Part shown: one piece after another, positions 2,980 to 61,415 of the stretch
How the letters are laid out: each line of letters begins with the position of its first letter
Numbering within the stretch: position 1 is the first letter of the stretch
DNA from: a virus
Taxonomy: Duplodnaviria > Heunggongvirae > Uroviricota > Caudoviricetes
Strand: one strand, 5' to 3'
Virus record (IMG/VR): IMGVR_UViG_3300031555_003801
Coordinates: 1 to 64,000 of that record
DNA: 64,000 nucleotides
Translations under genes and position numbers: made by a program
Notes under the pieces: generated by a model
The model's input: only the letters and a program-made list of their open reading frames with translations
What the model was told of the DNA's origin: nothing
The model's database searches: none

Positions 2980-3597
2980 ATGGCATACATTTATAAAATT
3001 ACTAATTAGATTAATCAAAAATCTTATATTGGAAAAACTTCTAAAATAAATCCACAAAGAAGATGGATGGAACATAAAGCAGATAGTAATAATCCTAATA
3101 GAAATCATAGAGCTTTATATAAAGCTATGAATAAATATGGAATAGATAATTTTATTTTTGAAATTATTGAAGAAACTAATTTGCCAGAAGAACGAGAAAT
3201 ATATTATATACAATATTATAATACTTATCATAATGGTTATAATGAAACTCTCGGCGGAGATGGTGGTAAATATTTAGATTTACCAGAACAAGAAATTTGT
3301 AAATTCTATTTAAAAAATAGAAATTTAAAAGATACCGCTGAGTTTTTTAATCATGATCAATTAACTATTAAACAAGTATTATATAAATATAATATAGAAA
3401 TTATTTCTTCTTATGAAGTTTTAAAAGAAAAAACTTCTAAACCAGTTGCGAAATTAGATAAAAATACAGAAGAAATAATTGAAATTTATCCATCAGTTAT
3501 TGAAGCAGAAAGACAAAATTCATGTCATTCACATATAAAAGATGTTTGTCATGGAAAAAGAAAAACTGCTGGCGGATTTAAATGGAAATTTATATAA
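2980..3597 (+). CDS. GIY-YIG homing endonuclease, 1 in-frame TAG (3007)
   Basis: MAYIYKITN*INQKSYIGKT...RRWMEH (GIY-YIG motifs) continuing into the ORF-track frame 3067..3597. RBS AAGGAG at 2965. Lies inside the tRNA array. Confidence 0.7.
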
Positions 3598-3598
3598 T

Positions 3599-3674
3599 GG
3601 GATTATAGCTCAAAAGTGAAGAGCGATGGTCGAAAGATTGGAGGTTGTGAGTTCAAATCTCACTAATCCCACCA
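3599..3674 (+). tRNA. tRNA-like gene with non-pairing anticodon stem (possible pseudo-tRNA)
   Basis: Acceptor gggatta/taatccc is perfect. D arm gctc-aaaagtgaa-gagc. T arm gtgag-ttcaaat-ctcac. CCA present. The region atggtcgaaagattgga does not form an anticodon stem. Confidence 0.35.
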
Positions 3675-3771
3675 ACGGGCAGAAGTGTAGCAAATATGTG
3701 GCTGCCAAGAGAAGAAAACAAACCACGATGTGCGGGCAGTTGGGGACCTAACCCTAGCTGTAATTTAATAA

Positions 3772-3836
3772 AAAGATGCTAACAGCGATCTTAATGCAAG
3801 CATGCAAATCCTTCCAAGATTTAATAATAGCATCTT
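3772..3836 (+). repeat. Hairpin-flanked element 'h': AAAGATGCTA / TAGCATCTT inverted repeat with ACAGCGA after the left arm
   Basis: Variant member of the ACAGCAAA hairpin family. Confidence 0.4.
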
Positions 3837-3864
3837 GTATTTTCTTCCAAAAGGAGGAAAAAAA

Positions 3865-4146
3865 ATGTAGAATGAGATTTTAAATTTCATTAAACGACGT
3901 TGGAGTATTGACGCAAATTGGACTAATGGAAATTGTTTATGGTTTGCCAAAATTCTTCAATTACGCTTTCCGCAAATTCAAATATATTACCTTCCAATTA
4001 TAGGTCATTTTATTGTTTCTGATGGAGAAAATTACTATGATTGGAATGGAATTTATCTTCCAGAAGAAGAACCAATTAATTGGGAGGAATTGCGGAAAAG
4101 CGATTTTTTATGGGCTGAACGATTGATAAGAGATTGTTGGCTCTGA
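3865..4146 (+). CDS. Small hypothetical protein (93 aa) whose second codon is TAG (ATG TAG AAT...)
   Basis: Strong RBS AAGGAGGA 3851-3858. Reading frame M*NEILNFIKRRWSIDANWTNGNCLWFAKILQ...RDCWL with stop TGA 4144-4146. Confidence 0.4.
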
Positions 4147-4448: not shown

Positions 4449-4453
4449 ATATG

Positions 4454-4533
4454 TAGGCACATGTACCAAGGCTGGCGACGGAGTCTCCAAAATTCCGTGT
4501 GGTGGGTTCGATTCCCAACTGTCTATGCCAAAA
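4454..4533 (+). tRNA. tRNA-like sequence (canonical T arm and 3' CCA, unresolved D/anticodon arms)
   Basis: T arm tggg-ttcgatt-ccca followed by tgtctat-g-cca. Possible acceptor partner gtaggca. The anticodon region cggagtctccaaaattccg has an over-long loop. Confidence 0.3.
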
Positions 4534-4800: not shown

Positions 4801-5043
4801 ATTTGCCCAATTAAATCTTGTATGGAGATTATAGTGGCTTTGGTCGGCCTCGGACCTAAGTAATGGCGATGAGGATATTTTTGAGATTGATTGGTATGCT
4901 CTTCACAGGTTTAGAAGAAACTAAAGATTGCGTATTACCCCCGGACGGTTAAGATTTTCAGATAAGGGTTAAGTTAGGTAAGAAAATCAATTGCATGCAA
5001 GGGTTTCATCATTTCCCTCACTGCGGTGGAAAAATGATAAATG

Positions 5044-5100
5044 ACTCACTATGTAAAAGAACCTTCTCGTGGTGTGAGTTGATTTCGACAGATACTTTTA
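5044..5100 (+). repeat. Diverged copy 3 of the ~55-nt structured element: stem GTAAAAG/CTTTTAC around AACCTTCTCGTGGTGTGAGTTGATTTCGACAGATA
   Basis: Core conserved with copies at 2897 and 10812. The outer stem sequence is different but still complementary (covariation). Confidence 0.45.
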
Positions 5101-5706
5101 CAAAAAAATAAATGCTAAATAACTCAGTGCTAAACTGTATCTCGCAGATATGGCTGAGGTATGCGGAAAATGGTCGGCAGAAAACGAAGCAGGGATACCT
5201 GTTGATACTGGCCCGCTGGTTCTAAGGTGACGAAGTTCCAGAAGAGGAGAGAACTCCCAAACGAAACGCATAGCATTTCATATATCGCAAATAAAAGCAG
5301 TAAGCGAATGGGCGAGGCAATAGAAAGCTCTGTGAATAGCGGAGCCGAATCCAAGTTAGGGTTTAGCTGGTGACTGTATCAATCCTTGGAAATACCAACA
5401 ACTCGTTTGGCCGTGAAGCAGAGAAATCTGTGTATAACATTTGCGCGCAACGTCCGAGTAGGTCAAGGCTATATTGCAATTCAAATTTTTGAAAGTTCTT
5501 ATTTGTTGTAGAAGAATTAACAAGAAATTTACTGAATTGTGGCTGAAAGGTGTGGGTAATCAATCCCGCATAGGACATTGGCTTTTAAAGCTGGGTTAAA
5601 AAAGTCACTGGGGTAGCTCCCCTAGGCTCAGATTTAACTCCCTATTGGCTGAATATATTTGAAGATATGTGACGTAGAACGAAGGTTCATTTAGCATTTT
5701 TTTTAT

Positions 5707-5780
5707 GCGGTATTGGTGTAGAGGTAACATAAGAGCCTTCCAAGCTTGGGTCGCGGGTTCGATTCCCGCATACCGCTCCA
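5707..5780 (+). tRNA. tRNA-Gly (anticodon TCC)
   Basis: Acceptor gcggtat/ataccgc. Anticodon arm agagc-ctTCCaa-gcttg. T arm gcggg-ttcgatt-cccgc. CCA present. Confidence 0.65.
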
Positions 5781-6263: not shown

Positions 6264-6340
6264 ATAGTCTGCAAAACTAATGGTTGTTGGTTCGAGTCCA
6301 ACCTTGAGATTTTATCTCAAGTAGCTCAATTGGGAGAGCT
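6264..6340 (+). tRNA. Candidate circularly permuted tRNA-Cys (anticodon GCA): anticodon arm, T arm and acceptor 3' strand are followed by a 5-nt loop and then the acceptor 5' strand and D arm
   Basis: Anticodon arm atagt-ctGCAaa-actaa (6264-6280). T arm gttgg-ttcgagt-ccaac (6286-6302). Acceptor 3' cttgaga (6303-6309). Loop t+ttta. Acceptor 5' tctcaag (6315-6321) is the exact reverse complement. D arm gctc-aattggga-gagc (6324-6339). Leader ttctta (6255-6260) pairs with trailer taagaa (6344-6349), bringing positions 26/27 together. ACAGCAAA at 6239-6246. Confidence 0.5.
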
Positions 6341-6366
6341 TAATAAGAATATGTGTCTAGAATTAT

Positions 6367-7711: not shown

Positions 7712-7788
7712 GTCCCTGTAATCCAACAGGTAGAGATAGTGGACTTAAAATCCATCCAGTGTGAGTTCGAATCTCACCAGGGACACCA
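7712..7788 (+). tRNA. tRNA with anticodon TAA (Leu-type anticodon) but class I architecture (5-nt variable loop)
   Basis: Acceptor gtccctg/cagggac is perfect. Anticodon arm gtgga-ctTAAaa-tccat. T arm gtgag-ttcgaat-ctcac. Discriminator A. CCA present. Confidence 0.5.
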
Positions 7789-7793
7789 AATAT

Positions 7794-7870
7794 GTCCCAT
7801 TAGCCCAATTGGCAGAGGCGTCTGACTTAGGATCAGATCAGTGCAGGTTCGAATCCTGTGTGGGGCACCA
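7794..7870 (+). tRNA. tRNA with anticodon TAG (Leu CUN-type anticodon) but class I architecture
   Basis: Acceptor gtcccat/gtggggc (2 G-U). Anticodon arm tctga-ctTAGga-tcaga is perfect. T arm gcagg-ttcgaat-cctgt. CCA present. Confidence 0.55.
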
Positions 7871-8098: not shown

Positions 8099-8947
8099 AT
8101 GGAATTAATTGATTTTACAAAAGAGATAAATAATGCTTAGTTATTTGTAGGTTCTGGTAAAAAGAAAAAATTATTAATTAATTATAACAATGAATAGTAT
8201 ATAATTAAATTTGCTAAAAATATATGTACAAATAATCAAGGTATTATTACAAATTAGAGAGGCTTTTCAGAATATTTAGCTTGTCAAATTTATCAAAATG
8301 CAGAATTTTTTGTTTAGGAAACTTTATTAGGTTATTATAAAAATAAAAATAATATTTTAACTGCTTGTAAACTTGCAAATAATAAAATTACAGATTTTAG
8401 TTTTTTTATGGAAAAATATGATTATAAAGTAAGTAATAAATTAAATGATATTTTATTAGTTTGTAAATATATTAATATAGAAGAATACTTTTGGGATATG
8501 TTTATTATAGATGCTTTTATTGGTAATACAGATCGTAATACTGGTAATTGGGGATTATTTTATAATGAAAAATTAGATAAAATATTAAGCGTTCCTTTTA
8601 TTTTTGACTGTGAAAATAGTTTTTATCCCAATATGAATGATTATATTTTATAGAATTATTGTCAAAAAGAATTAAAAGAAATAGCTTATAATTATCCAGA
8701 ATCAAAAATAATTTATAATAATAAAAATATAAATTATTTTAATTTTATTTCTTCTTTAGAGAATGAAGATTGTAATGAAGCTTTAAAAAGAATTGTTCCT
8801 AAAATTGATATAGAAAAAATTATTTAGATTATAAATGATCTTCCACTTGAAAAAATATAGAAAAATTTTTTAATAACAATTCTTCAAAAAAGAAAAGAAT
8901 TATTAAATCTTGTTTTAATAAAACTTAATGAAAGAGAAAACCAATGA
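8099..8947 (+). CDS. HipA-like (HipA/CtkA kinase family, divergent catalytic motif) protein with 7 in-frame TAG codons
   Basis: VGSGKKKKL (P-loop-like) and FIIDAFIGNTDRNTGNWG (HipA C-terminal motif region, with D-R-N in place of D-x-H). Same frame as ORF-track fragment 8408..8653. Overlaps the E1 start (ATGA). Confidence 0.5.
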
Positions 8948-9675
8948 TTAGATATAAAGAAAATATTGATGAATTTAATTTAACAGAAAAAATTCAAAAT
9001 CAATTATTAACAAAAAATATTGCAGTAATTGGTTGTGGCGGACAAGGTGGATATACTTTAGAATTTCTTATTCGATTAGGAATTAAATCTATTATTTTTT
9101 GGGATGGAGATTATTTTGAAGAATCTAATCTTAATAGACAAATAGGCTGTTTAATTCCAACGTTACAAAAAAACAAAGCTTTATCTATGAAAGAAAGGCT
9201 TCAACAAATTAATCCAGAAGTAGAATTAATTTGTTGTGATTGGTATTTTGGAGATAAAGAAGATGATAAAGAGAAACTATCTAAAGTAGATTTTATTTTT
9301 GATGCTGCAGATTGTAATTATAATATTTTTAAATTAAGAACAATTTTAAGAGAAGTCATTATTGAATATAATATTCCTATTATTCGTTTCCCTATAAATA
9401 TATTAGGAGGTTATGTTCATATTGAAACTATGAAAGATTTAAGCCATTTTGATTTTATTACGCATAGATTAATTTATCAAAATAAAAATGAAAAAATTTT
9501 TCCAGAAGCAGTAAGTCAACCCGCTTATAAATGTGCAATTATTGCGGGCGAAGCTGTAAATCAAATGGTTCAATATTTTTCTAATTGTAGATATGCGGCT
9601 ATTGATACAACTTTAAATATTGATCTTTATCATCATAAATATGTTGAAGAAGATAGATTTGGAATTATTCCATAA
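8944..9675 (+). CDS. ThiF/MoeB/E1-like adenylyltransferase
   Basis: Rossmann motif IAVIGCGGQGGY. Signature FEESNLNRQ. 243 aa. Confidence 0.75.
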   Translation: MIRYKENIDEFNLTEKIQNQLLTKNIAVIGCGGQGGYTLEFLIRLGIKSIIFWDGDYFEESNLNRQIGCLIPTLQKNKALSMKERLQQINPEVELICCDWYFGDKEDDKEKLSKVDFIFDAADCNYNIFKLRTILREVIIEYNIPIIRFPINILGGYVHIETMKDLSHFDFITHRLIYQNKNEKIFPEAVSQPAYKCAIIAGEAVNQMVQYFSNCRYAAIDTTLNIDLYHHKYVEEDRFGIIP

Positions 9676-9678
9676 TTT

Positions 9679-9759
9679 GGGGACATAGCTCAGTTGGTGA
9701 GAGCGCAGAGCTTATACCTCTGGAATCTGTCGAAGGTTCAAGTCCTTCTGTCCCTACCA
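9679..9759 (+). tRNA. tRNA-Ile (anticodon TAT), 9-nt variable loop
   Basis: Acceptor ggggaca/tgtccct. D arm gctc-agttggtga-gagc. Anticodon arm cagag-ctTATac-ctctg. T arm gaagg-ttcaagt-ccttc. CCA present. Confidence 0.55.
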
Positions 9760-10463: not shown

Positions 10464-10813
10464 CGGGGCTGAAAATGGTTTCGACAGGGTTGTGAAAAAT
10501 TTTAAATCCGCAGGTGTGATTTACCTTACAAATCAAACTTAAATATAAACGCAAAACCTTATAGATTAGCTGCCTAATTAATTGGTAGGCCTAAACGACA
10601 TGCTTGTTGTTCAGCTAAATGTCTGCGGCTCGAGGAATAGAACAATCACCCCAAAGTTTCTTAATTCTTTTTCAAAAATTAAGTGGTGGATACGATGTTT
10701 GTAAAGTGTCTTTACAAAACCCTGAGTTGGTTATCTCTAAAATAACCTATTGCGTAAGTATGATTTAAAATTAGTAACAGTTTTGGACGCGAGTTCGACT
10801 CTCGCCAGCTCCA
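10464..10813 (+). ncRNA. ssrA: tmRNA (ssrA-like transfer-messenger RNA)
   Basis: 5' end GGGGCTGAAAATGGTTTCGACAGGG (tmRNA tRNA-like domain). 3' end ggacgcgag-ttcgact-ctcgc-cagctcc-a (T arm + acceptor pairing with GGGGCTG). Internal tag-like reading frame GCA AAA CCT TAT AGA TTA GCT GCC TAA (…AKPYRLAA*) ending in the typical LAA + TAA. Confidence 0.65.
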
Positions 10814-11052: not shown

Positions 11053-11061
11053 AGTATTAAA

Positions 11062-11151
11062 GCTCCGTAGTCTAATGGTAAAACGCCGGACTCTAAATCC
11101 GTTATACTCTCTGAAAGGGTAATCTGGGTTCGAATCCCAGCGGGGCCGCCA
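11062..11151 (+). tRNA. Amber suppressor tRNA (anticodon CTA, reads UAG), class II with long variable arm
   Basis: Anticodon arm (c)cgga-ctCTAaa-tccg(t) with U33 and A37. Variable stem tactct/agggta. T arm ctggg-ttcgaat-cccag. Acceptor agctccg/cggggcc (1 A-C at 1-72) + g + CCA. The D arm is irregular. Confidence 0.6.
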
Positions 11152-11160
11152 ATTTTTAAT

Positions 11161-11193
11161 AGCCAGTTTATATTTTTATAAACTGGCTTTTTG
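11161..11193 (+). terminator. Rho-independent terminator closing the tRNA array
   Basis: agccagtttata-ttttt-ataaactggct followed by tttt. Confidence 0.7.
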
Positions 11194-11201
11194 TTATTTA
11201 T

Positions 11202-11230
11202 TTGAAAAAAATTAAAAAATATGATATAAT
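11202..11230 (+). promoter_or_regulatory. sigma70-like promoter TTGAAA-N17-TATAAT
   Basis: ttgaaa 11202-11207, tataat 11225-11230 (tgaTATAAT). Confidence 0.6.
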
Positions 11231-11264: not shown

Positions 11265-12230
11265 ATGGAATTAATTGACTTTACGAAAGCAATAAATAAT
11301 GCTTAGTTATTTAAACCTACTGGTAACAATAAAAAAAAATTAAAAATTATTTATAATAATGAAGAATATATAATAAAAACTTCAAAATATACAATTGAAC
11401 AAGATAAAGAAAATAAATATAAAATGATTGAATTGTATAATACAATATCGGAATATTTAGGTTGTAAAATTTATGATAGTTTAAATATACCTGCACAAAA
11501 AACTTTATTAGGATATTATTAGTATAAAAATAAAAAACAAATGATAATTGCTTGTAAAAATTTTAATATTGATGATAGTTTTCTTCCTTTTGGTATATTC
11601 TTTAATAAAGAACGACAACAAGATAATAATAAATTGCAATCTTTAGAAATAAAAAATATTATAAAAAAAATTGAAGAACAAAATATTTATGATTCTCAAA
11701 AAATAAAAAAACGTTTTTGGGATATGTTTATTATTGATGCTTTTATTGATAATCCCGATAGAACTTCTGGAAACTGGGGTTTTATAAAAGATAAAAAAAC
11801 AAATACAATCATAAATTTTTGTCCAATTTTTGATTGTGAATAGAACATATTTTTAGAAATACTATTAAAAAATAAAAAACAATTATTAAATAATTAGAAT
11901 AAAATAAATTTTTTAGCTATATCGCCTTTTAAAAAATCTTATTTAATTTATGATAATAAAGTTATAAATTATTTTAATTTTATTTCCTCTTTAGAAAATG
12001 AAGATTGTAATGAAGCTTTAAAAAGAATTGTTCCTAAAATTGATATGGAAAAAATTATTTAGATTATAAATGATCTTCCACTTGAAGAATTCCAAAAAAA
12101 TAATTTAATAATAGTATTAAAAAAAAGAAAAGAATTATTATTAGATTTTCCTTTATTTCTCTTACAAAATATAGATAAAAGAGAAAAATACGAAAAAAAA
12201 ATAGAAAGGATAATATATGATAAATTATAA
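11265..12230 (+). CDS. HipA-like paralog with 5 in-frame TAG codons
   Basis: MELIDFTKAINNA*... FIIDAFIDNPDRTSGNWG. Same frame as ORF-track fragment 11541..11843. Its C-terminal ~125 bp is a near-exact direct repeat of the 3' end of 8099..8947. Stop TAA at 12228-12230 overlaps the ycaO start. Confidence 0.5.
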
Positions 12231-14007
12231 AAATCATTATAAAGAACGAAAACCAGAGGAAACAATAAAAATTATAGAAAACTTTTTTTTAAATCTCAAT
12301 ATGAAAATTAAAAGAAATGAAGTTATGATTAGTGAAATAAATACTTATTCAATACAAATAATATTATTTGATAAAAATGATTTTTTAATTTTATACGCTA
12401 ATGGTAAAGGTGAAACAGAAGAATTTGCAATTGCCTCTGCTTATGGCGAATTATATGAACGTTTCTGTAATATGAGATTTATTATGAAAGATGGTATTGC
12501 TCAAAATTTATTTTTACAAAAAAGAAAACAAAAATATAATTATTATTATCATCCAGAAGAAAAAGAATTTTCTTTAATAGAATTAATTAATGCCGATCAA
12601 AATTTTCATAATTTTTTCTTAGGAGATTTTTCTGAAAAAGATTCTGATATTATTAATTTTTATAATACACTTTTTAATAATAAATTTATTGCTGCGCCTT
12701 ATCAAGATTTATTAGATTCAAATAAACAATATTTTTATAACCCATATTTAATGACAGTGTTAAGAGGATCTGGCGGAATGGCTGCTGGAAATACATTAGA
12801 AGAAGCTTTAAATCAAGGCATTTCAGAACTTTACGAACATTATATTACAGATAAATTTCGTTATTTAAAAAAAGATTTTGATTTTCATTTTATAGATATT
12901 TCAACTATTAAAAACCAAAAATTAAAAGAAAAGATAAAATTATTAACAGATAATGAAAACTATGAATATTATTTAATTGATTTTTCTTATAATTTTAATG
13001 TACCTGTTTTATTATCTATTTTAATTGATAAAACTTTACAAAGATTTTTTATTAATTTTGGTTCTTTTCCTATTTTTGATATTGCTTTAGAAAGAACATT
13101 AACAGAATTATATCAAGGAGTTGTTTCTTTTAAAGAAGAAGAACAATCAAATAATATTATTGTTCCTTATAAAAGTGGAGTAACTATTATAGAAGCTTTA
13201 GACGCTACAGCAAATGTCACTAATTCTCTTTGTTTAAATGAAAGTTTTTTATTAAGTGAAAAAAAATTTTATTCCCCTAATTCAAAAATATTTTTATTTA
13301 ATCAGGATAAAAATTATTCAAATGAAGATATATTAAATTATTATAAAAAATTATCTTCTTATTTAAATATTAATTTTTGTTATTTAGATGTATCTCAATC
13401 TTCTGAAATGCATGCTATACAAATTTATAGTATAAATTTACCTCATTTCTCGTTACCTTTGGAAGCAAAAAAAATGCTTTACAAAAAACAACAATTAAAT
13501 GTTTATAAATTATTATCATATTTTATTCAGTTAGAAAATAAATGGCTAAATAATCATATATGGGATAATTTATTATGGGAAAAAATAATAATTTTATATA
13601 ATCAATTTACTATTGAAGATATTTTATTGTTTAATATTAGTGCCTCTATATTTTGTTTTAATTTTAGTAAAACTAATAATCTTTTATCATTAATTGAACA
13701 ATTTATAAAAATGGATTCAAATATTTATATGATTGAAGAACAAATTATTGCTATGTCTAATAAATCAATTCTTTCAGAAGATATTAAAAAATTCTTAACT
13801 CAATATAGGTATATTGTTAATAATGATTATCTTCCAAGTGAAAAAACTAAAATATTAAAAACTTTAATACCAGAATTTTCACAAGATGAAACATTATTTA
13901 AAAATATTATTACTCCAGAATATTTCTTACAAGTAATAATGGAAAAATTATATGAATATTATCATAGTGAAAAATATTCTGATTATCTTGATGCTTTAGT
14001 TGGATAA
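12217..14007 (+). CDS. YcaO-domain protein
   Basis: ANGKGETEEFAIASAYGELYERF matches the YcaO ATP-binding/cyclodehydratase signature. 596 aa. No TAG codons. Confidence 0.7.
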   Translation: MINYKNHYKERKPEETIKIIENFFLNLNMKIKRNEVMISEINTYSIQIILFDKNDFLILYANGKGETEEFAIASAYGELYERFCNMRFIMKDGIAQNLFLQKRKQKYNYYYHPEEKEFSLIELINADQNFHNFFLGDFSEKDSDIINFYNTLFNNKFIAAPYQDLLDSNKQYFYNPYLMTVLRGSGGMAAGNTLEEALNQGISELYEHYITDKFRYLKKDFDFHFIDISTIKNQKLKEKIKLLTDNENYEYYLIDFSYNFNVPVLLSILIDKTLQRFFINFGSFPIFDIALERTLTELYQGVVSFKEEEQSNNIIVPYKSGVTIIEALDATANVTNSLCLNESFLLSEKKFYSPNSKIFLFNQDKNYSNEDILNYYKKLSSYLNINFCYLDVSQSSEMHAIQIYSINLPHFSLPLEAKKMLYKKQQLNVYKLLSYFIQLENKWLNNHIWDNLLWEKIIILYNQFTIEDILLFNISASIFCFNFSKTNNLLSLIEQFIKMDSNIYMIEEQIIAMSNKSILSEDIKKFLTQYRYIVNNDYLPSEKTKILKTLIPEFSQDETLFKNIITPEYFLQVIMEKLYEYYHSEKYSDYLDALVG

Positions 14008-14087: not shown

Positions 14088-14153
14088 ATATTATAAAGTT
14101 AAAAAATAATCCTCTTGTCCAAGAGGAAACAATGAGAAAAAGGAGTAAAGAGA

Positions 14154-15710
14154 ATGAATAAGTTTTTAAATGGATTAACTGATGCAACTAACTTCACTTA
14201 CACTGAAAATGGTGCTATTACCCATAAAACTACTAAGTCTGCTCTGTTAGATATGTTCGCACTTGGTGGAGCATATAGAACTAGAAGTGACGCAGAAGTA
14301 ATCACCTTATTTAAGAACGCATATGAGGAAAATCCTGTTTATGCGTTAAAGTGCCTGTTCTATCTGCGCGACGTGCGTGGCGGACAGGGTGAAAGAAGAT
14401 TTTTCAAAACTGCAATGAAGTGGTTTGCTAATGCTGATGTAGAAGCAGCAAGAAGAAATTTCAAGCATATTCCAGAGTTTGGTAGATGGGATGATTTATA
14501 TCTTTTCATTAATACGCCTCTTGAAAATGAAATGTTCCAGTTTATGAAGGAACAGTTAGCACTCGATATGCAGTGCAAAACACCTTCTCTGTTAGCAAAG
14601 TGGTTAAAGTCTGAAAATACATCTTCTATGGAATCCAGATATCTGGCTAAGAAGACTCGTCAGTATTTTGGCATGACCGCAAAGCAGTATAGAAAGACAT
14701 TATCTATCCTCCGTGAAAGAATTAATGTTCTTGAAAGATTAATGTCTGCAGGTAAGTGGGATGAAATCGAGTTCGATAAGATTCCTTCTAAGGCAGGTTT
14801 AATTTATAAGAATGCTTTTGCTAGACACGATATCGAAAGAATGAAGACTGAAAAGGCTGTAGTATCTTATGCGGATTTCGCTAAGGATGTAACTACAACT
14901 GTAAATGCTAAGGCATTATATCCATATGAAGTAGTAGCTAAGGCTATTGATTTAATGGGATATAATGGTGGTTGGTTCCGTAGCACTCATGATGTTCCAT
15001 TAGATAATACTGATAGACTTATGATTAATAAATATTGGAATAATCTCGCTGATTATATCCAGGGTGCTAATTTTAATGGAATTGCAGTGGTAGATACTTC
15101 TGGTTCTATGACTGGTTCTTTTGCTAGTGCACCAATTAATGTAGCTGTTTCTCTTGGCATGTATTGTGCTGAAAAAAATAATGGTCCATTCAAAGATCAC
15201 TTCATTACATTTGAATCTAATCCTCATTTAATTAAGGTTGAAGGCGTAGACTTTTGCGAAAAGGTTTATAATATTACTGGCGCAGACTGGGGTGGTTCTA
15301 CAAATATTGAAGCAGTGTTTGACTTATTATTAGATACTGCTATCAGAAATAATTGTTCTCAGGATGAAATTCCACAGAATGTAATTGTTATTTCTGATAT
15401 GGAGTTTAACTCTTGTGTAACTTTTAATAGCTTACTTGCAAGAAGATATTATAATGAACCTATGTTTAATACTGAAACTTTATTCGAAACCATGGAACGC
15501 AAATGGAATAGAGCAGGATATCAGATGCCTGCAATTACATTCTGGAATGTTCAGGCAAGACAGAATAATATTCCAATGAAGACTGAAGGTAGAGTAAATT
15601 ATGTATCTGGTATGTCTCCAGTAATCTATGAACAGGTTATGAAAGGTTTAAGTGCTTACGATCTGATGATGGATAAGTTAGATAATGAAAGATATAGCGT
15701 AATTTGCTAA
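14154..15710 (+). CDS. vWA (MIDAS) domain protein with large N-terminal helical domain (Ro60/TROVE-like architecture possible)
   Basis: MIDAS motif VVDTSGSMTG. 518 aa. Clearly higher GC and different codon usage than flanking phage genes. Confidence 0.55.
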   Translation: MNKFLNGLTDATNFTYTENGAITHKTTKSALLDMFALGGAYRTRSDAEVITLFKNAYEENPVYALKCLFYLRDVRGGQGERRFFKTAMKWFANADVEAARRNFKHIPEFGRWDDLYLFINTPLENEMFQFMKEQLALDMQCKTPSLLAKWLKSENTSSMESRYLAKKTRQYFGMTAKQYRKTLSILRERINVLERLMSAGKWDEIEFDKIPSKAGLIYKNAFARHDIERMKTEKAVVSYADFAKDVTTTVNAKALYPYEVVAKAIDLMGYNGGWFRSTHDVPLDNTDRLMINKYWNNLADYIQGANFNGIAVVDTSGSMTGSFASAPINVAVSLGMYCAEKNNGPFKDHFITFESNPHLIKVEGVDFCEKVYNITGADWGGSTNIEAVFDLLLDTAIRNNCSQDEIPQNVIVISDMEFNSCVTFNSLLARRYYNEPMFNTETLFETMERKWNRAGYQMPAITFWNVQARQNNIPMKTEGRVNYVSGMSPVIYEQVMKGLSAYDLMMDKLDNERYSVIC

Positions 15711-16751: not shown

Positions 16752-18169
16752 TGTATTAGGCATATGTAACTAAATTAAAAAATGTGCGGCCGCACCCTAA
16801 TGCTGATAGAATGCTTTTAGCAGACTGTTTCGGCAATACTGTTTGTGTAGGCCTTGACGCGCAAGAGGAAGATGTAATTCTCTATTTTCCAACAGATGGA
16901 CAATTATCTAAAGAATATGCGGAAATCAATAATCTTATAAGAATCAAGAATGAAGATGGAACATATTCCGGTGGATATTTAGACCCAGATAAAAGAAACA
17001 TCAAAGCAATTAAATTAAGAGGTGAAAAATCTGATGGTTTAGTAATGCCACTAGAATCCCTTTCTTCTTTTGGAGATATTTCTACTTTAAATATTGGAAA
17101 TACAATTAATGTCTTTAATGGACATGAAATTTGTAAAAAGTATATTCCAAGAGAAAATCCAATGAAGGTGCGCGCTGGCGGTAATAAGACCCGCAAGACC
17201 AAGCGCCTAATTGCTCCTTTATTCAAAGAACATGCTGATACTGAACAATTAGCATATAATCTTGATGCTTTCAAAGCGGGAGATGAAATTGAAATCACAT
17301 TAAAGATGCATGGAACTTCTCAAAGAACTGCTTACTTACCAAAATTAATTGGTTATAAAAGATCTATTTTAGATAGACTCTTAAAGAGAGAAGGAACTCC
17401 AATCTATGATTGGGGCTATGTGTCTGGAACTCGTAGAACTGTTGTAGATGATTTTGAAAATAGAACAACTTCTTTCTATGGTAGTGATGCATTTAGAGAA
17501 CCGCATGCAAAAATGTTTGAAGGAAAGCTTTATAAGGGTGAAACTGTTTATTATGAAGTTGTTGGTTTTACCGATAATGGAACTCCTATTATGGGTTCTT
17601 GTGATAATAGAAAAACTCAAGATAAAGAGTTTATTAAGAAATATGGTGAAGTGACTACTTTCTCTTATGGTTGTGACTGTGCGGAACAAGCATGGAGAGA
17701 AAATAGAGGACAAGATCCAGACAAACCTCAGTCTGACATTTATGTATATCGAATGACAATGACTAATGAAGATGGTTATGTAATGGAATTAACTCCTGAT
17801 TATATGAGATATAGATGCGAGCAGATGGGTGTAAAGACAGTGCCTGTTATGTGGAAAGGATACATTCCTTATACAGTAGATGACATTGATTCTACTATTC
17901 CTGGTCACAGAATTATACTTAGAGAAGGGGAAAATGCTGGAGACTGGGTTAAGAGTGTAGCAGAACAGTATTACGATGGACCTGACCCAATTGGTAGAAC
18001 CCATGTGCGGGAAGGTGTAGTTGTAAGAATTATAAATAGACCAAAATTTGCAGCATATAAGCATAAAAACTTTAGCTTCAAAGTTCTCGAAGGAATTGTC
18101 AAAGCGGATGCATTAATGCCAGATATGGAAGAAGCACAGGAGACTATTGATGAAAGTTCAGAGATTTGA
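16751..18169 (+). CDS. ATP-dependent RNA ligase (Rnl2/Rnl5-like, nucleotidyltransferase motif I KMHGTS) with N-terminal OB-like domain; codon 3 is TAG
   Basis: ATG TAT TAG at 16751-16759 joins onto ORF-track frame 16784..18169. LKMHGTSQR resembles the KxHG(T/S)N motif I of the Rnl2 family. GC-richer than the surroundings. Confidence 0.55.
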
Positions 18170-20910: not shown

Positions 20911-20989
20911 GTTCTCGCTTTTTTGTTTTATATAAAAAAATATGATATAATATAATATAAAATAAAAATGAGTAAAAGGAGAAGAATAT

Positions 20990-22177
20990 ATGTCAAATTG
21001 TAATGAAAATAATTGTTCTTCTTTAAAAGAATTAATTACAAATTATAAATATAATAATTTATTACCAATTCATGGGATTTTATCTGTTACAAATAGATGT
21101 AATTTAAATTGTTCTTATTGTTTTCATAAACAAAATGAAATAGATATAAATTTTTATACTGCGGATATGGCTATAAAATATATTATTTCAAATGCGACTA
21201 TTCAAAAAGTAAAACCTAATATTAGCTTTTTTGGAGGAGAACCTTTATTATTATTTGATGAAATAATAAAACCATTAATTAATAAATATAAAGATTCTAT
21301 AAATTGGACTATTACAACAAATGGAACTTTATTAACAGAAAATATTATAGATTTTTTTACTGATAATAATGTTTCTATTTTATTATCTATGGATGGATGT
21401 AAAAAAGTTCAAGACAATCAAAGGCCTATGAAAAATGGAGAAAGTTGTTTTGATAAATTAAAAAATATCATTCCATATTTATTATTAAAGCAACCTAATA
21501 CTATTTTTAGGTCAACAATCTCAAGATATTCTTTAGATTTTTTAGAAGAAAATATTAATACGGCTAAAAATTTTGGTTTTAAATATATTACATTAGTGCC
21601 TAATTTATTTGAAGAATGGCAACCAGAAGATTTTTATAAGTGGGAACAATTTATAGATAATGAATCTATTAAAATTATGCAAAAAATTTCTTGGGAAGAA
21701 CCTTTTGATTACATATTAACAAATTTAAAAGATGGTATTCAAGGAATTTATAAATCTAATCAAAATAATTATTTAAAAAATCCTATTGATGCTTGTGGAA
21801 TGGGCTTTAAAGGTATTGGAATTTCTCCAAATGGAAAATTACATCCTTGTCAAGAAGAAAACGGTGTAGATGATATAAATATTATAGGTGATATTTATTA
21901 CGGAATTGATAAAAAATTACATGAACAATACTGTAAAGATATTTATAATAAATGGTTAGAATATATAGAAAAAATAGATAATATAATAGGAAGTTCTAAT
22001 TTTAAATTATTTTATGGAAATCATGTTTGTAATACAAGATTAAAAGATGGATTTGCTTTTAATAATACACAAACATATTATTTAAGAGCTTTACATAGAG
22101 CTTGTTCAAGATTATATTATAATTTTAATTTATCTTTAAATCCAAGAGCACAATATTTTTTAGGAGAAATTGAATGA
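20990..22177 (+). CDS. Radical SAM enzyme with C-terminal SPASM/twitch-like Cys cluster
   Basis: CNLNCSYC (CX3CX2C) near the N-terminus. C-terminal CGMGF...HPCQEENG cysteines. Confidence 0.8.
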   Translation: MSNCNENNCSSLKELITNYKYNNLLPIHGILSVTNRCNLNCSYCFHKQNEIDINFYTADMAIKYIISNATIQKVKPNISFFGGEPLLLFDEIIKPLINKYKDSINWTITTNGTLLTENIIDFFTDNNVSILLSMDGCKKVQDNQRPMKNGESCFDKLKNIIPYLLLKQPNTIFRSTISRYSLDFLEENINTAKNFGFKYITLVPNLFEEWQPEDFYKWEQFIDNESIKIMQKISWEEPFDYILTNLKDGIQGIYKSNQNNYLKNPIDACGMGFKGIGISPNGKLHPCQEENGVDDINIIGDIYYGIDKKLHEQYCKDIYNKWLEYIEKIDNIIGSSNFKLFYGNHVCNTRLKDGFAFNNTQTYYLRALHRACSRLYYNFNLSLNPRAQYFLGEIE

Positions 22178-23373
22178 TTACTTTAAACTTACATATAAAT
22201 TATAATTGTCCTTTATCTTGCCGATATTGTTGTCAAAGAAATGATATAGCTTTATTAGATTCTGAATTTACTGCTCAAGAAATGATTGATGTAGTACAAA
22301 ATTTTATGGATTCTAAAAATGTTGATAAATGTAAAATAAATATATCTGGAGGAGAACCTCTTTTAAAATATAAAGATATTCAACAATTAATGAAACATTT
22401 TCCAAATAATACTTATGAAATTTCTACTTCTGGATATTTATTAACTGCTGAAAAAGCTAAATTCTTTTCTTATTATGGAGTTAGTTATATTTTATCTGTT
22501 GATGGGGGAGAAAAAGTAACTAATTATTTAAGACCTCTAGCAAATGGAGAACAAGGATATTTTCAAAAATTAAAAGAAAATATACCACATATTTTATATT
22601 ATGCTCCAAGAACAAGAGCAAAATTAATTGTTCCTAAAAATTTAATTTCAGAAATTTTTAACACTTATTTAGAATTAGAAAGACTTGGTTTTCAAGAAAT
22701 TTTTATAACACCTAATGTATATGAAAATGAGGTTGATACACATCATCCAGAATTAGAGACAGGTCATTGGGAAGAAGAAGATTGGAATAAATTTAGAACT
22801 GAAATTTTTAAAATTATGAAAGAAATAGAATTAGGTATTTCTTTAAATCGAAAAAGATGTTTAATTACTAATATTATTACTATTTTAGTAAAAATGTTAA
22901 TTCCAGAAGAAGGAAAATTTAATAGTGCTAAATTAATTTGTGAAGTATTAGATTTTAAAGGCGGAACAAGTCCTGCTGGTGGGCAAGTTCCTATTTTAAA
23001 TACAGATATTTCTTTATGTATGAGAAATATAAATGAAGAAATTGATACTCAAGAAAAACTGTTAAATAAAATAAAACAAGATTATTTAGCTCTTAATGGC
23101 GTTTGCGAGCTAGATGAAAAATGTCCATATCAATCTACTTGTATGTATAGTGTTTGTTTATCTGAAAATTTAAAAAGTAAACATAAAAATATTTTTACTC
23201 CAACATTATTTCAGTGTAATACTCAAAAGATTTATCATGATGCAGCAATGTTATTTTTAAATCTTTTAAATGATAAAAATAATGAAGTTATAAAATATTA
23301 TTGGAATGAAATTTATTATAGAAAAGAGGTGTCTATGAATAATGCCTTATTATCCAGCTGGAACGGTGAATGA
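22174..23373 (+). CDS. Second radical SAM/SPASM-like enzyme
   Basis: CPLSCRYC (CX3CX2C). C-terminal CELDEKCPYQSTCMYSVC Cys cluster. Overlaps the upstream gene by 4 nt. Confidence 0.75.
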   Translation: MITLNLHINYNCPLSCRYCCQRNDIALLDSEFTAQEMIDVVQNFMDSKNVDKCKINISGGEPLLKYKDIQQLMKHFPNNTYEISTSGYLLTAEKAKFFSYYGVSYILSVDGGEKVTNYLRPLANGEQGYFQKLKENIPHILYYAPRTRAKLIVPKNLISEIFNTYLELERLGFQEIFITPNVYENEVDTHHPELETGHWEEEDWNKFRTEIFKIMKEIELGISLNRKRCLITNIITILVKMLIPEEGKFNSAKLICEVLDFKGGTSPAGGQVPILNTDISLCMRNINEEIDTQEKLLNKIKQDYLALNGVCELDEKCPYQSTCMYSVCLSENLKSKHKNIFTPTLFQCNTQKIYHDAAMLFLNLLNDKNNEVIKYYWNEIYYRKEVSMNNALLSSWNGE

Positions 23374-24070: not shown

Positions 24071-24130
24071 TAAAAAATATGTTATAATATATTATAATAA
24101 AAATTAAGAAATAAATAAGGAGTTGATACT

Positions 24131-24850
24131 ATGGCTACTTACATTTGCAGTGATTTACATGGCAATTATAATGTATGGTATGAAATCAAAAAATTCTTAA
24201 AAAAAGATGATAAATTAATTTGCCTTGGTGATGTAATTGATAGAGGTTCCGCAGGATATTCCATTTTAGTAGAAATGCTTGGAGATTCAAGAGTAGAATT
24301 ATTTATGGGTAATCATGAAGATATGATGATTCGTAGTTGTGATTTACATCTTAAAGGTGCTAATACAAATACTTCTTCCACTATGGCAAATTGGATTTAT
24401 GGCAATGGTGGAAATTGTACTTTTGAAGATTGGTGTCTCGATCCTGGTCGTATGGAAATATTAGAACAAATGCGCAATCTACCTTTAAAAAGATTACATA
24501 TTAATGAAAAAGGTTTAAAAATTATTTTATGTCATGCAGGTTGTTGTTCAGAAGATTTTTATAATGATAATATTGAAGATTTTGATTTGTTATGGGATCG
24601 AAATCATTTTCATTTTCCTTGGCCAAAAGATGAAGAATTTGAAGACTGGATGGTAGTTCATGGACATACTCCAATAGCAAAGATGATGAATTGGCCAGAT
24701 TATGTGCCGACCAAAGCTCTATGGTATGAAGGTGGGCATAAAATTGATATTGATTGTTTAACAGCATTTACCAATTTTACTATTCTTCTTAATATTGATA
24801 CTTTTGAAGAACATATTATTGGAGAACCTATTGAGGAGGTGCTTTGGTAA
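24131..24850 (+). CDS. Calcineurin-like metallophosphoesterase / Ser-Thr protein phosphatase (lambda PPase/ApaH-like)
   Basis: Motifs CSDLHGN, GDVIDRG, GNHE. Confidence 0.75.
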   Translation: MATYICSDLHGNYNVWYEIKKFLKKDDKLICLGDVIDRGSAGYSILVEMLGDSRVELFMGNHEDMMIRSCDLHLKGANTNTSSTMANWIYGNGGNCTFEDWCLDPGRMEILEQMRNLPLKRLHINEKGLKIILCHAGCCSEDFYNDNIEDFDLLWDRNHFHFPWPKDEEFEDWMVVHGHTPIAKMMNWPDYVPTKALWYEGGHKIDIDCLTAFTNFTILLNIDTFEEHIIGEPIEEVLW

Positions 24851-25140: not shown

Positions 25141-25164
25141 TTTTGCGAGTCAAAAATATGATGT

Positions 25165-25909: not shown

Positions 25910-25912
25910 GGA

Positions 25913-30300: not shown

Positions 30301-31560
30301 ATGAAGATATACAAATTTTATGATACTTGCAGTCTATTAATCAAGGCAGATGCTTTATTTAAAGATGAACAAGATACCATAGTTATTTCTTCAATAAGCT
30401 TAGAAGAGTTAGAAAACATTAAAACCTCTGGCTCTAAGGATGAAGATACTAAGATGCGTGCTAGACATTTATTGCGCGTTCTTGATGAAAATCCTGACAA
30501 GTATGAAATTTGGATCTTTAAAGAACCAATGTTGAAGCCTATTGAGGAAAAGGGTTTTAGCATCTCAAATGATATGAGAATCCTTGCTAGCGCAATTGAT
30601 TATGATAATACTTGCCATCCAGATGAAACAGTATTTATAACCAATGATTTATTATTAAAACATATTGCTAATTTATTTTTTGGTGAAGATTCTGTTGGTA
30701 GTATAGAAGAAAATATTGATGATGGATATACTGGCTTCAAGGAAGTATATTTATCTAATGAAGAAATGGCCTAGTTTTATTAGAATATAAACTAGAATAT
30801 TTTTAATTTGCATATAAATTAGTATTTATTTATTTATAATCAATAGAAATAGCATGTAGATACTGTCTGCTGGGATGGTGAAACACATCGTAGTGTAATA
30901 TATCATTCATTTAAATCTGAATGGTTTGGTGAAGTCAAACCATATAAACATGATATTTATCAAGTCATTTTGGCAGATAGTTTATGTAATAATCAAATAA
31001 CCATGGTAAAGGGGCCTGCGGGCACAGGTAAAACATTCCTTTCTCTTGGTTATTTAATGCATTTATTAGAAAAAGGTAAAATTGATAAGATTATTGTTTT
31101 TTGTAATACCGTAGCTACCAAAAATTCTGCTAAGCTGGGGTATTATCCAGGAACTAGAAATGAAAAGCTTCTGGATTCACAAATTGGTAATCTACTAATT
31201 AGTAAGTTAGGAGACAGATATGCGGTTGAAGATTTAATTGAAACCGGAAAATTAGTTTTATTACCTTTATCTGATATTAGAGGCTATGATACTTCTGGAA
31301 TGAATGCAGGTATTTATATCTCAGAAGCGCAAAATATGGATATTTCATTAATGAAATTAACATTACAGAGAATCGGAGAAGATAGTGTTTGTATCATTGA
31401 TGGTGATTGTAAAACTTAGGTAGATGATATGAGTTTTGCGGGTCGCAATAATGGTATGCGTAGAGTTTCAAAAGTATTTAGAGGACAAGATGTGTATGGA
31501 GAAGTTGAACTTCAAATTATACATCGTTCAAAAATAGCACAAATTGCGGAGCAGTTATAA
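30301..31560 (+). CDS. PhoH-like protein (N-terminal PIN domain + PhoH P-loop ATPase) read through 8 in-frame TAG codons, 7 of them clustered in the interdomain linker
   Basis: PIN-like FYDTCSLL, SLEEL, ITNDLLL. ATPase motifs GPAGTGKT and IIDGDCKT*VDD...GEVELQIIHRSKIAQIAEQL. ORF-track pieces 30301..30774 and 30970..31419 are in the same frame and are joined by TAG-containing sequence. Confidence 0.65.
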
Positions 31561-42209: not shown

Positions 42210-43160
42210 ATGGATATAATAATATATAGTTTAATTGGTGTCTTAACTGGTGGTATTATAATTTATTTTATAATGCGATCAAAAGTAAAACAAAGAGTTT
42301 TTTTAGATACCGAATTAGAAAAAGAAAATAGTAAATTAAGACAAGAATATGAATTTCTACGTGATGAATATGTCAGAATAAAAGCATAGAGAGAATCTAT
42401 TATAGAAAATTTAGGCATGTTAGAAAAGTAGGCAAGGCAATCTGCTGAAGTTTTTTATCAAAAGAATATGGAGATTGCATAGCAAAATCTTGAAGCATCA
42501 TTAGAAAAGTTTAGTCAAGAAATCCAATAGTCAAAAGATTAGTATGAAGCAGAATATTTAGCAATTATAAAAGATTTAGCAGATAAAGCATAGCTAAAAA
42601 CAGAAGAAGTTAATAAACTTATATCTGATTTAGATAATGAACTAAATGAAAAACAATCTATTGTTAATGCAGCTGTTGAAGCAAGTAAACGAGCAAAAGA
42701 AATGGAAGAATCTAAAGATTTTTATCGTTTATAGCTATCAGATACTGATGTTGATGAAATTGCGCGACTTCGCTCAGTAGTTCCTTATTTGCGAAATGCT
42801 GAACCAATTAATAAAGTTATTTGGAAAGTTTATTATGAAAAACCATATACTGATTTAATTGGTAGAGTTATTGGTTCTGGCGTTCACACCGGCATTTATA
42901 AAATTACTAATATGGAAAATAATATGTGCTATGTTGGTCAAGCCGCTAACTTATCAGAGCGTTGGAGACAACATATTAAGCGTGGTGTCGGCGCAGAAGC
43001 TCCAACCCGCAATAAACTCTACCCAGCTATGGAAGAATTTGGGGTAGAGAATTTTACATTTGAAGTAATTGAAGAGTGCGATAGAGCTAAACTTGATGCG
43101 CAAGAAGATTATTGGCAAGAATATTTTAAAGCAAAAGAATTTGGTTATAGTATAAAATAA
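42210..43160 (+). CDS. Membrane-anchored coiled-coil protein with C-terminal GIY-YIG nuclease domain, 7 in-frame TAG codons
   Basis: N-terminal hydrophobic segment. Coiled coil KA*RESIIENL...EIA*QNLEASLEKFSQEIQ*SKD*YEAEY. C-terminal GIYKITNMENNMCYVGQAANLSERWRQH. The ORF track shows only the last 123 codons (42789..43160). Confidence 0.6.
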
Positions 43161-61350: not shown

Positions 61351-61415
61351 TTAATTTTGTAGCCGCAACACACAAATAAATATACGACTACAAAATATAG
61401 AAGGAGGTTATAATC

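Follow-up and report, generated by a model that had tools for sequence, protein, structure and literature searches.

A phage amber suppressor tRNA whose long extra arm may present a glutamine anticodon signal

How the suppressor transfer RNAs (tRNAs) of recoding phages are charged by hosts whose own code is the standard one is an acknowledged open question. Borges et al. rarely found phage-encoded synthetases and assumed that the host glutaminyl- and tryptophanyl-tRNA synthetases (GlnRS and TrpRS) are co-opted. The question takes an unusual form in the 64,000-nucleotide (nt) stretch of viral DNA analyzed here, referred to in its full length as the window (IMG/VR record IMGVR_UViG_3300031555_003801, positions 1 to 64,000). 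Its amber suppressor tRNA, encoded at 11061-11151 on the + strand, has the anticodon CUA and a long extra arm. An earlier note on this DNA had assigned it the architecture of Ser, Leu and Tyr tRNAs and had regarded the inserted amino acid as open. We asked which amino acid UAG specifies in this phage and which parts of the tRNA might secure its charging. We favor, with a probability of about 60%, a reading in which the tRNA is a Gln-decoding suppressor whose extra arm presents a Gln anticodon signal to the charging machinery.

TAG is read as glutamine

The window has a G+C content of 30%, carries all of its genes on the + strand and derives from a large phage; it encodes gyrase, Pol III alpha, DnaB and NAD ligase. 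Most of its genes are intact under the standard code, and at least nine need read-through of TAG. The following genes contain in-frame TAG codons:

8099..8947, + strand: paralogous HipA/CtkA-like kinase gene, 7 in-frame TAG codons
11265..12230, + strand: HipA/CtkA-like kinase gene, a client of the suppressor, 5 in-frame TAG codons (11304, 11520, 11841, 11895, 12060)
30301..31560, + strand: PIN-PhoH ATPase gene, 7 in-frame TAG codons
31602..32342 (start approximate), + strand: CHAP and PG_binding_1 endolysin gene, TAG at 32022 and 32178
42210..43160, + strand: coiled-coil and GIY-YIG protein gene, 7 in-frame TAG codons, the coiled-coil positions of the earlier note

Several of these codons fall on conserved glutamines. 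TAG 31417 corresponds to the invariant Q of the PhoH GDxxQxD motif, which is Q in PDB entry 3b85 and in 120/120 homologues, and the codon at this site is CAA or CAG in five related contigs (L039, L040, L207, L209 and L210). In the HipA paralogue at 8099, the column beneath TAG 8315 is Q in 120/120 homologues, most of them bacterial, and those beneath TAG 8858 and TAG 8195 are Q in 115/120 and 77/120. TAG 32178 represents the conserved Q of PG_binding_1, found in 61 of 72 representatives sharing no more than 50% identity, and is replaced by CAA or CAG in L039 and L040. In the remaining HipA columns beneath TAG, either K, S, N or T predominates or the residue varies among E, K, R and Q. Distant homologues of the coiled-coil/GIY-YIG gene, located beside the suppressor tRNAs of phAss-like phages, contain TAGs as well. 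For a TAG-containing GT8-like glycosyltransferase gene, the homologue search returned 2 matches only, and the PDB alignment was weak and was not used.

P0001, P0121, P0122 and related database proteins were called with code 15, so that a Q at a TAG position in them is not independent evidence, and DNA was compared instead. Codons of the window were set against those of the five code-15 contigs named above. Gln accounted for 19 of the 53 partners that TAG exchanges with (CAA 14, CAG 5), followed by Glu (9), Asp (5), Lys (4), Ile (4), Arg (3), Ser (3), Tyr (2), Thr (2), Phe (1) and Asn (1), with Leu and Trp at 0. Under a BLOSUM62 substitution model, Gln was the top amino acid in both data sets, the swaps and the HipA columns. 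With the swap data, Ser, Tyr, Leu and Trp scored 38, 56, 68 and 81 natural-log units below Gln, values that overstate independence while leaving the ranking unambiguous; with the HipA columns, Ser was 4.1 log units below. Because TAG aligns with conserved Gln residues and exchanges with CAA and CAG in relatives, these codon comparisons show that TAG encodes Gln (genetic code 15, table 15) both in this phage and in its relatives. Published work on such phages (phAss-1 paper, Borges preprint) is in line with this assignment, which settles the matter that the earlier note had left open. That note had also held that Leu would suit the coiled-coil TAG positions, a suggestion which the absence of Leu among the swaps and its score speak against; no conserved L or Y column lies beneath TAG, bar one mixed Q/L column.

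A phage GlnRS, a release factor and YqeY were looked for within the window, and none was found. The related code-15 contig L209 (179 kb) carries a free-standing YqeY, of the GatB C-terminal-like, tRNA-Gln-binding type, and a Thg1-like enzyme (3425-3871 and 4892-5674). A metallophosphatase open reading frame (ORF) at 25910-26536 ends in a TAG at 26534 that is kept as TAG in L039 and L040 and is followed by 13 further sense codons before TAA; this codon either provides a programmed C-terminal extension upon suppressor expression or still serves as a stop early in infection. In L038, an assembly of the same phage from another sample, the HipA-like gene 3′ of the tRNA (1895-2812) combines the N-terminal portion from the 11265 copy with the C-terminal portion from the 8099 copy, the product of either paralogue recombination or assembly collapse.

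Structure and identity elements of the suppressor tRNA

ARAGORN located the CTA-anticodon tRNA as the last of 21 tRNAs that, together with a transfer-messenger RNA (tmRNA), it called within the first 11.2 kb of the window. Its parts and immediate 3′ surroundings are as follows:

11061..11151, + strand: amber suppressor tRNA gene, anticodon CUA, 91 nt including the encoded CCA (ARAGORN, Rfam, family covariation, L038)
11061..11067, + strand: acceptor stem, 5′ strand AGCUCCG (DNA AGCTCCG), A1 mismatched with C72 (read from the sequence)
11070..11084, + strand: D arm GUCU-AAUGGUA-AAAC (DNA GTCT/AAAC, loop AATGGTA), 7-nt loop, C12·A23 mismatch, class I-like
11086..11102, + strand: anticodon arm CCGGA-CUCUAAA-UCCGU (DNA CCGGA-CTCTAAA-TCCGT)
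11091-11097, + strand: anticodon loop CTCTAAA, with the decoding anticodon CUA at 11093-11095
11103..11123, + strand: variable region, 21 nt, UA-UACUCU-CUGAA-AGGGUA-AU
11105-11121, + strand: extra-arm hairpin TACTCT / CTGAA / AGGGTA, 6 pairs, loop CTGAA
11110..11114, + strand: U-C-U-G-A of the extra-arm loop, CUG at 11111-11113, matching U33-C34-U35-G36-A37 of tRNA-Gln(CUG)
11124..11140, + strand: T arm CUGGG-UUCGAAU-CCCAG (DNA CTGGG-TTCGAAT-CCCAG), canonical
11141-11147, + strand: acceptor stem, 3′ strand CGGGGCC, followed by discriminator G73 at 11148 (read from the sequence)
11149-11151, + strand: encoded CCA 3′ end
11161..11198, + strand: intrinsic-terminator-like hairpin (12 pairs, 11161-11188), then a T run, directly 3′ of the suppressor tRNA
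11202..11230, + strand: sigma-70-like promoter TTGAAA-17-TATAAT with extended -10, a consensus match only, preceding the next gene, which needs UAG read-through

The Rfam tRNA model (RF00005) scored 51.2 bits over 11061-11148, against a gathering score of 29, and in its alignment the four standard arms are all matched, while 18 nt of the variable region are treated as an insertion. The earlier description of a sole CTA tRNA with a canonical anticodon loop, a canonical T arm and a long extra arm (tactct-ctgaa-agggta) is borne out by ARAGORN, Rfam and covariation; the coordinates then given, 11062-11151, were correct at the end and one base late at the start. The anticodon loop contains the A36-A37-A38 context. 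No second CUA tRNA was found anywhere in the 64-kb window by ARAGORN, Rfam and further checks, and the identical 91 nt recur in an independent metagenome assembly, L038. ARAGORN's label 'Pyl' reflects the anticodon alone: a tRNA-Pyl is expected to have a 3-nt variable loop, a small D loop and an accompanying pyl system, whereas the variable arm here is 21 nt long, and no PylRS or other aminoacyl-tRNA synthetase is encoded within the window. The cloverleaf, at -24.9 kcal/mol, lies within 0.6 kcal/mol of the minimum free energy (-25.5). Single-sequence folding gave no signal (z = -0.77); only covariation provides one.

An 18-nt pattern that spans the anticodon arm and reaches into the variable region matched 36 IMG/VR contigs, 25 of which hold a homologous tRNA(CUA) of 87-94 nt. 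A search of cultured phages in INPHARED found the family in phAss-1 alone (OQ749652, "Caudoviricetes code 15 clade"), where an 88-nt homologue annotated as tRNA-Sup-CTA adjoins a 72-nt one; the phAss-1 paper mentions a Dehalobacter match. When the anticodon was replaced by a wildcard (GGWCTNNNAAAWCCGTTAT), no family member with a different anticodon was recovered from IMG/VR, and bacterial genome contigs gave chance matches only, among the matches listed. Covariation was measured on alignment A2, comprising 15 distinct homologues in a five-helix structure, with 500 shuffles and slid controls for comparison. Paired cells amounted to 91.6%, and 16 of 27 pairs showed changes on both sides. None of the 500 shuffles equalled the pairing and covariation values of the family, and the slid controls were all far lower. 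Covariation was present in all five helices, including two pairs within the helix of the extra arm, which forms a hairpin of 21-23 nt across the family. Pair 31-39, A-U in the window copy, is U-A in 14 relatives, a compensatory change, and a C27·U43 mismatch is invariant.

A broader census, constraining the anticodon loop and T loop only, listed at least 94 phage tRNA(CUA). Among the matches listed, about 15% are 84 nt or longer, several with quite different stems, and about 85% are class I tRNAs of 71-78 nt without an extra arm. The earlier note had pointed to a separate class I tRNA(CUA) as something it might have missed. None is present in the window, and one adjoins the long form in phAss-1 (L001 5914-6082) and at least ten other IMG/VR contigs (L003, L013, L017, L020, L026, L027, L028, L030, L254 and L304).

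Acceptor ends and D arms were used to compare the long-arm suppressor with the classes that its extra arm calls to mind. The acceptor ends of tRNAs in the same phage pools are:

Ser: pair 1-72 G-C, position 73 G
Leu: pair 1-72 G-C, position 73 A
Tyr: pair 1-72 A-U, position 73 A
Gln: pair 1-72 U-A or A-U, position 73 G
Trp: pair 1-72 A-U, position 73 G

Leu and Tyr identity require A73 (PMC9976931), and the window copy has G73, as do 14 of 16 parsed long-arm members. In bacterial tRNA-Ser, G1-C72 and G2-C71 are absolutely conserved (PMC9976931). The suppressor has the long variable arm (21 nt), G73 and G2-C71, but the A·C that the earlier note had reported at pair 1-72 is indeed present, and within the family (n=15) this pair is U-A in 6, A·C in 6, A-U in 2 and U·U in 1, and never G-C. 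Its D arm has a 4-position stem and a 7-nt loop, versus a 3-pair stem and a loop of 10-11 nt in the window tRNA-Ser, which has the class II form of D arm that determines how the long arm is oriented. Because it combines G73 and a class I-like D arm with the lack of G1-C72, the long-arm suppressor is, as judged from these elements, no class II tRNA of the Ser, Leu or Tyr type, contrary to the architecture first assigned to it; its acceptor end groups with those of Gln and Trp, apart from those of Ser, Leu and Tyr.

These elements, together with the codon data, bear on two rival assignments. A supD-like suppressor, in which SerRS recognizes the long arm and G73 whatever the anticodon and UAG is translated at least partly as Ser, is the rival amino acid assignment to be taken seriously, yet it is quite improbable. 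A long arm with G73 does provide the classical SerRS determinants (PMC5389517, PMC9976931), one HipA column beneath TAG is S in 116/120 homologues, and S prevails in two columns of the PhoH linker; nevertheless G1-C72, which the phage's own tRNA-Ser possesses, never occurs in the family, the D arm is class I-like, TAG occupies invariant Gln positions, and Ser makes up only 3/53 swap partners. A supP- or supF-like suppressor for Leu or Tyr would be in keeping with the long extra arm and with an anticodon arm that is nearly identical to that of the window tRNA-Tyr(GUA), but G73 in place of the required A73 and the counts of 0/53 and 2/53 leave it almost no weight. Origin from tRNA-Tyr, considered since the two share an anticodon stem, was ruled out by G73, the D arm and the codon data. 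The known suppressors supD (Ser), supP (Leu) and supF (Tyr) resemble the window tRNA in their long extra arm and CUA; they differ in having G1-C72 (Ser, Leu), A73 (Leu, Tyr) and class II D arms, and in inserting amino acids that the comparative data exclude here.

The body of the tRNA has its nearest relatives elsewhere. Over the 5′ 43 nt, mean similarity is 70% to class I tRNA(CUA), 68% to tRNA-Trp and 56% to tRNA-Gln, with tRNA-Gln and tRNA-Ser among the least similar isotypes; the best match of the window copy is E. coli trpT (71%, and up to 88% for one member), in part through shared anticodon-loop flanks. The earlier claim that this is not a tRNA-Gln derivative therefore stands, and the body resembles, in sequence, that of tRNA-Trp, in the manner of the E. 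coli suppressor su+7 (supU; tRNA-Trp with CCA changed to CUA). Likenesses to su+7 include a body that appears to be of Trp type, with its anticodon arm (CCGGU-CUCNAAA-ACCG), D arm and A15-U48, the weak 1-72 pair, G73 and the anticodon CUA. In contrast to the long-arm family, with its hairpin of 21-23 nt and UYUGA, su+7 has a 5-nt variable loop, and the window copy differs further in the A1·C72 mismatch and the flipped 31-39 pair. A tRNA-Trp amber suppressor becomes glutaminylated, and su+7 is charged with Gln since U35 and the acceptor end satisfy GlnRS (PMC9976931). From the E. coli GlnRS identity set (PMC9976931), the window copy possesses a weak or mismatched 1-72 pair (A1·C72), G73, G2-C71, G10-C25 and U35.

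Nor is a long arm an obstacle to glutaminylation: a long-armed amber tRNA-Ser took on Gln identity once 1-72 and 3-70 had been changed (PMC9976931), so the two are compatible. This amber supD tRNA-Ser of Rogers and Söll (cited in PMC9976931) shares with the phage tRNA a long arm, CUA, a weakened first pair and acceptance by GlnRS, but it was engineered from a true class II tRNA and its arm lacks an anticodon-like motif. Phage tRNA(CUA) have been described as substrates of E. coli GlnRS (PMC12636597). The class I tRNA(CUA) of code-15 phages (crAss-like, Lak, phAss-1) are likewise phage-encoded, have CUA, serve TAG-to-Gln recoding of a subset of genes and carry a Gln-type acceptor end (U1·C72 and G73 in the phAss-1 short form); they differ in being armless and 71-78 nt long, and often lie directly beside a long-arm copy. 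The allo-tRNAs and tRNA-Sec-like tRNAs of Mukai et al. (PMC5389517) are also long-arm tRNAs from metagenomes and phages, some of them nonsense suppressors and with G73. They have an acceptor/T branch of 8/4 or 9/3 and a predicted Ser identity, whereas the long-arm family shows a 7/5 split, a weak 1-72 pair and, in the arm, a Gln anticodon motif. Considering the codon and tRNA comparisons, we infer that the tRNA at 11061-11151 is charged with Gln and very probably inserts it at UAG.

The extra-arm loop and its possible role in charging

The equivalent of G36 in the window tRNA is found only in the extra-arm loop, within UCUGA at 11110-11114. To place this motif, 29 distinct long-arm tRNA(CUA), among the matches listed, were compared with 22 distinct long-arm tRNA(UCA) obtained by an equivalent scan, 6 of them ordinary selC-like and 16 others, and with Ser, Leu and Tyr tRNAs of the same loci:

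Long-arm tRNA(CUA), n=29: YUGA 26, UYUGA 21, UCCAA 0
Long-arm tRNA(UCA), not selC-like, n=16: YUGA 0, UYUGA 0, UCCAA 13
selC-like tRNA(UCA), n=6: YUGA 1, UYUGA 0, UCCAA 0
Ser, Leu and Tyr tRNAs of the same loci, n=117: YUGA 9, UYUGA 3, UCCAA 0

UYUGA corresponds to U33-Y34-U35-G36-A37 of tRNA-Gln. The '34' position of the arm loop varies only between C and U, yielding CUG and UUG, both of which are Gln anticodons. One long-arm CUA group has a 7-nt arm loop, UUCUGAG, versus UUCUGAU in E. coli tRNA-Gln (glnX), and the arm loop of L012, UUUUGAU, is that of the window's own tRNA-Gln(UUG). Across members the loop motif is constant, whereas the arm stems vary and show covariation. Lambda boxB, a UGAA tetraloop and the CUGA box of a K-turn were considered as identities of the arm loop, and none fits all members. 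By these matches, it is in its extra arm that the suppressor resembles tRNA-Gln, whose anticodon loop is reproduced there.

Two further systems follow the same pattern. UCCAA, present in the arm loop of 13 of the 16 non-selC-like long-arm tRNA(UCA), is the anticodon loop of tRNA-Trp, and in code-4 phages TGA is assigned to Trp. These tRNAs, 88-100 nt long and often with the full CUCCAAA, occur in contigs L329-L448 (for example L443 13002-13098, L389 639-734, L405 5162-5254 and L421 57-149), and many have a Trp-type A1-U72/G73 end; in L443 this end is combined with the arm CGGGGU-CUCCAAA-ACCUCG. All 4 of 4 long-arm tRNA-Ile(UAU) contain N-N-G-A-U-(A/U)-A in the arm loop, which is the loop of the major tRNA-Ile(GAU) (L291 5404-5498; L296 5378-5469 and L244 8274-8365, both on the - strand; L009 7718-7813). 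In the 81-nt tRNA-Ile(UAU) of the window itself (9679-9759), the variable region measures 9-10 nt and lacks the GAU(A/U)A motif. In two tRNAs the arm loop does not match the expected amino acid: a 92-nt tRNA-Trp(CCA) in L362, with CUGAUCA, and a 99-nt tRNA(UCA) with a GGAGA... start in L391 (8313-8411), with CUGAAAG. The weight of the motif evidence lies in the sequence agreement of three separate anticodon/amino-acid systems, each with its matching motif.

GlnRS, TrpRS and IleRS are class I synthetases that depend strongly on the anticodon, and a change of anticodon normally cripples charging. Since all three are enzymes of this kind, the Gln, Trp and Ile systems fit a mechanism in which the arm is read. 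In the mechanism that we propose, the Trp-like body would act as in su+7, with the acceptor end supplying features for Gln charging, and the arm loop would present those Gln anticodon determinants that are missing from the decoding anticodon CUA, G36 foremost among them. The host charging machinery would read the arm, through GlnRS or, where GlnRS is missing, through a non-discriminating GluRS with GatCAB. The first base pair is read in both routes (PMC9976931). With the arm as the signal, what the synthetase recognizes would no longer be tied to what the ribosome decodes. To gain access to the arm, the enzyme might bind differently, or the two hairpins might swap roles. Most phage amber suppressors are class I, so the arm would not be obligatory and may act as an enhancer or specificity device. 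We consider the chances evenly balanced that the extra arm is such an auxiliary "identity anticodon" for anticodon-reading synthetases. Somewhat more tentatively, a second hairpin with the loop of a cognate sense anticodon may be a general phage device that uncouples charging from decoding: a YUG arm for Gln in tRNAs with CUA that read UAG, a CCA arm for Trp in those with UCA that read UGA, and a GAU arm for Ile in those with UAU that read AUA, the readers being GlnRS, TrpRS or IleRS.

Several points weigh against a role of the arm in charging. In a tRNA of standard L-shape, the variable arm is directed away from the site at which GlnRS binds the anticodon, and the arm loop is mostly 5 nt, not 7, in the window subfamily. 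Three members of the GlnRS identity set are missing from the window copy, which has C3-G70, A36 and A38 in place of G3-C70, G36 and U38; G3-C70 is present in some family members (L016, L019, L024). A long arm with G73 is usually taken to signal SerRS (PMC5389517). A class I tRNA(CUA) encoded beyond the 64-kb window, as in phAss-1 and other contigs, could by itself explain why TAG means Gln. Fisher tests of motif against anticodon set gave p between 1e-6 and 1e-15, values that overstate independence because the sequences within sets are related; single-linkage clustering left 19 clusters of CUA and 13 of UCA tRNAs at 85% identity, falling to 5 and 7, respectively, at 75%. Conservation of the motif could be due in part to descent.

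In an unlikely alternative, the suppressor would be su+7-like and insert Gln, and its long arm would play no part in identity. The arm might then be a structural insertion, an anti-determinant (against TrpRS, for example, given the Trp-like body), a shield against tRNA nucleases or a handle for a phage factor, with UYUGA kept for that purpose or by descent; that one of these roles is the true one we likewise consider unlikely. All of the evidence for Gln fits this alternative equally well, as does the Trp-like body; the arm is dispensable in the class I suppressors that form about 85% of the census; the geometric objection to a synthetase reading the arm speaks for it; and the RNA ligase, kinase and phosphatases encoded in the window suggest pressure from tRNA damage. 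What it leaves unexplained are the match of the loop to Gln, Trp and Ile in tRNAs with CUA, UCA and UAU, respectively, and the restriction of the '34' position to C and U.

A different possibility, which we regard as improbable, is a two-headed tRNA. With the second hairpin stacked, the molecule would be a tRNA-Gln(CUG) for the synthetase and for CAG, and with the first stacked it would read UAG. Some members indeed have a 7-nt loop of anticodon type on an arm stem of 5-7 pairs, as in L443 and in GCC-UUCUGAG-GGC of L254, L261 and L276; the two hairpins of L443 look like a tandem duplication, and the invariant C27·U43 mismatch could loosen the junction. On the other hand, the linkers of most members fit a normal class II layout (1 nt following the D stem and 1-3 nt ahead of the T stem), and the arm loop of the window subfamily has 5 nt. 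We retain as our preferred reading a Gln-decoding suppressor with a Gln anticodon signal in its arm. A conceptual likeness, and no more, exists with the anticodon-mimic hairpins of mRNAs that bind synthetases (PMC6542539, PMC9976931), in which an anticodon-like loop also serves as a recognition signal away from the anticodon; those hairpins regulate synthetase expression, whereas here the mimic would lie inside the tRNA that is charged.

If the preferred reading is correct, the built-in copy of an anticodon loop offers a simple answer to the question of how standard-code hosts charge such tRNAs. As a tRNA identity element it would be of a new type, and long variable arms could no longer be assigned by rule to Leu, Ser, Tyr and Sec. 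The amino acid of a recoded stop would become predictable from sequence alone, and a design principle would be available for efficient suppressor tRNAs in genetic code expansion and tRNA therapeutics. The variable arm is not mentioned in the Borges preprint, in the phAss-1, Peters et al. and zeta-crAss papers or in a 2025 screen of 213 phage suppressor tRNAs. A literature search, incomplete in its coverage, found no relevant description of a second, dual, extra or mimic anticodon in tRNAs. This code-15 suppressor thus possibly has a new architecture, and perhaps an identity element of a new type.

Other features of the window

The tRNA array contains several further RNAs. A full-length ROOL RNA lies within it at 5099-5707 (Rfam RF03087, 337 bits), and a phage tmRNA (Rfam 102.6 bits; ARAGORN tag AKPYRLAA*) at 10465-10813, some 250 nt upstream of the suppressor tRNA. 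Directly after tRNA-His, at 4453-4530, is a degenerate tRNA-like element with the loop CUCCAAA (Trp, CCA), G73, CCA and an irregular D region; it was missed by ARAGORN and scored 30 bits, below threshold, with the Rfam tRNA-Sec model. At 3599-3671, Rfam alone detected a tRNA (46.9 bits) whose acceptor stem and D and T arms are well formed and which lacks a regular anticodon arm of 5 pairs and 7 nt. The genes for tRNA-Leu(UAA) at 7712-7788 and tRNA-Leu(UAG) at 7794-7870 are 77 nt long, with a 5-nt variable loop and A73. Lacking the usual bacterial long arm, these short Leu tRNAs are the mirror image of the long-arm suppressor; similar ones occur in L024.

Sub-threshold matches to YrlA (Y RNA-like) at 2488-2594 and 6264-6363 (25-35 bits) combine a T-arm-like hairpin with a D-arm-like segment after it. 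A DUF2828/DUF7788 protein is also encoded in the window (ORF 14136-15710), and the two may possibly form a module of the Ro/Y-RNA type. An RNA ligase, an AAA_33 kinase and two metallophosphatases (16760-18169, 24119-24850, 25162-25674 and 25910-26536) suggest an RNA or tRNA repair set and a phage that faces tRNA-cleaving defenses. Near the tRNA array are genes for a YcaO cyclodehydratase, a ThiF-like protein and two radical SAM proteins (12214-14007, 8932-9675 and 20972-23373). At the end of the window, nrdD, encoding anaerobic ribonucleotide reductase (61401-64000), halts at model position 262/562 and resumes near 63498. The GIY-YIG endonuclease ORF located between the two parts (62773-63381) makes the interruption look like an intron or a homing-endonuclease insertion.

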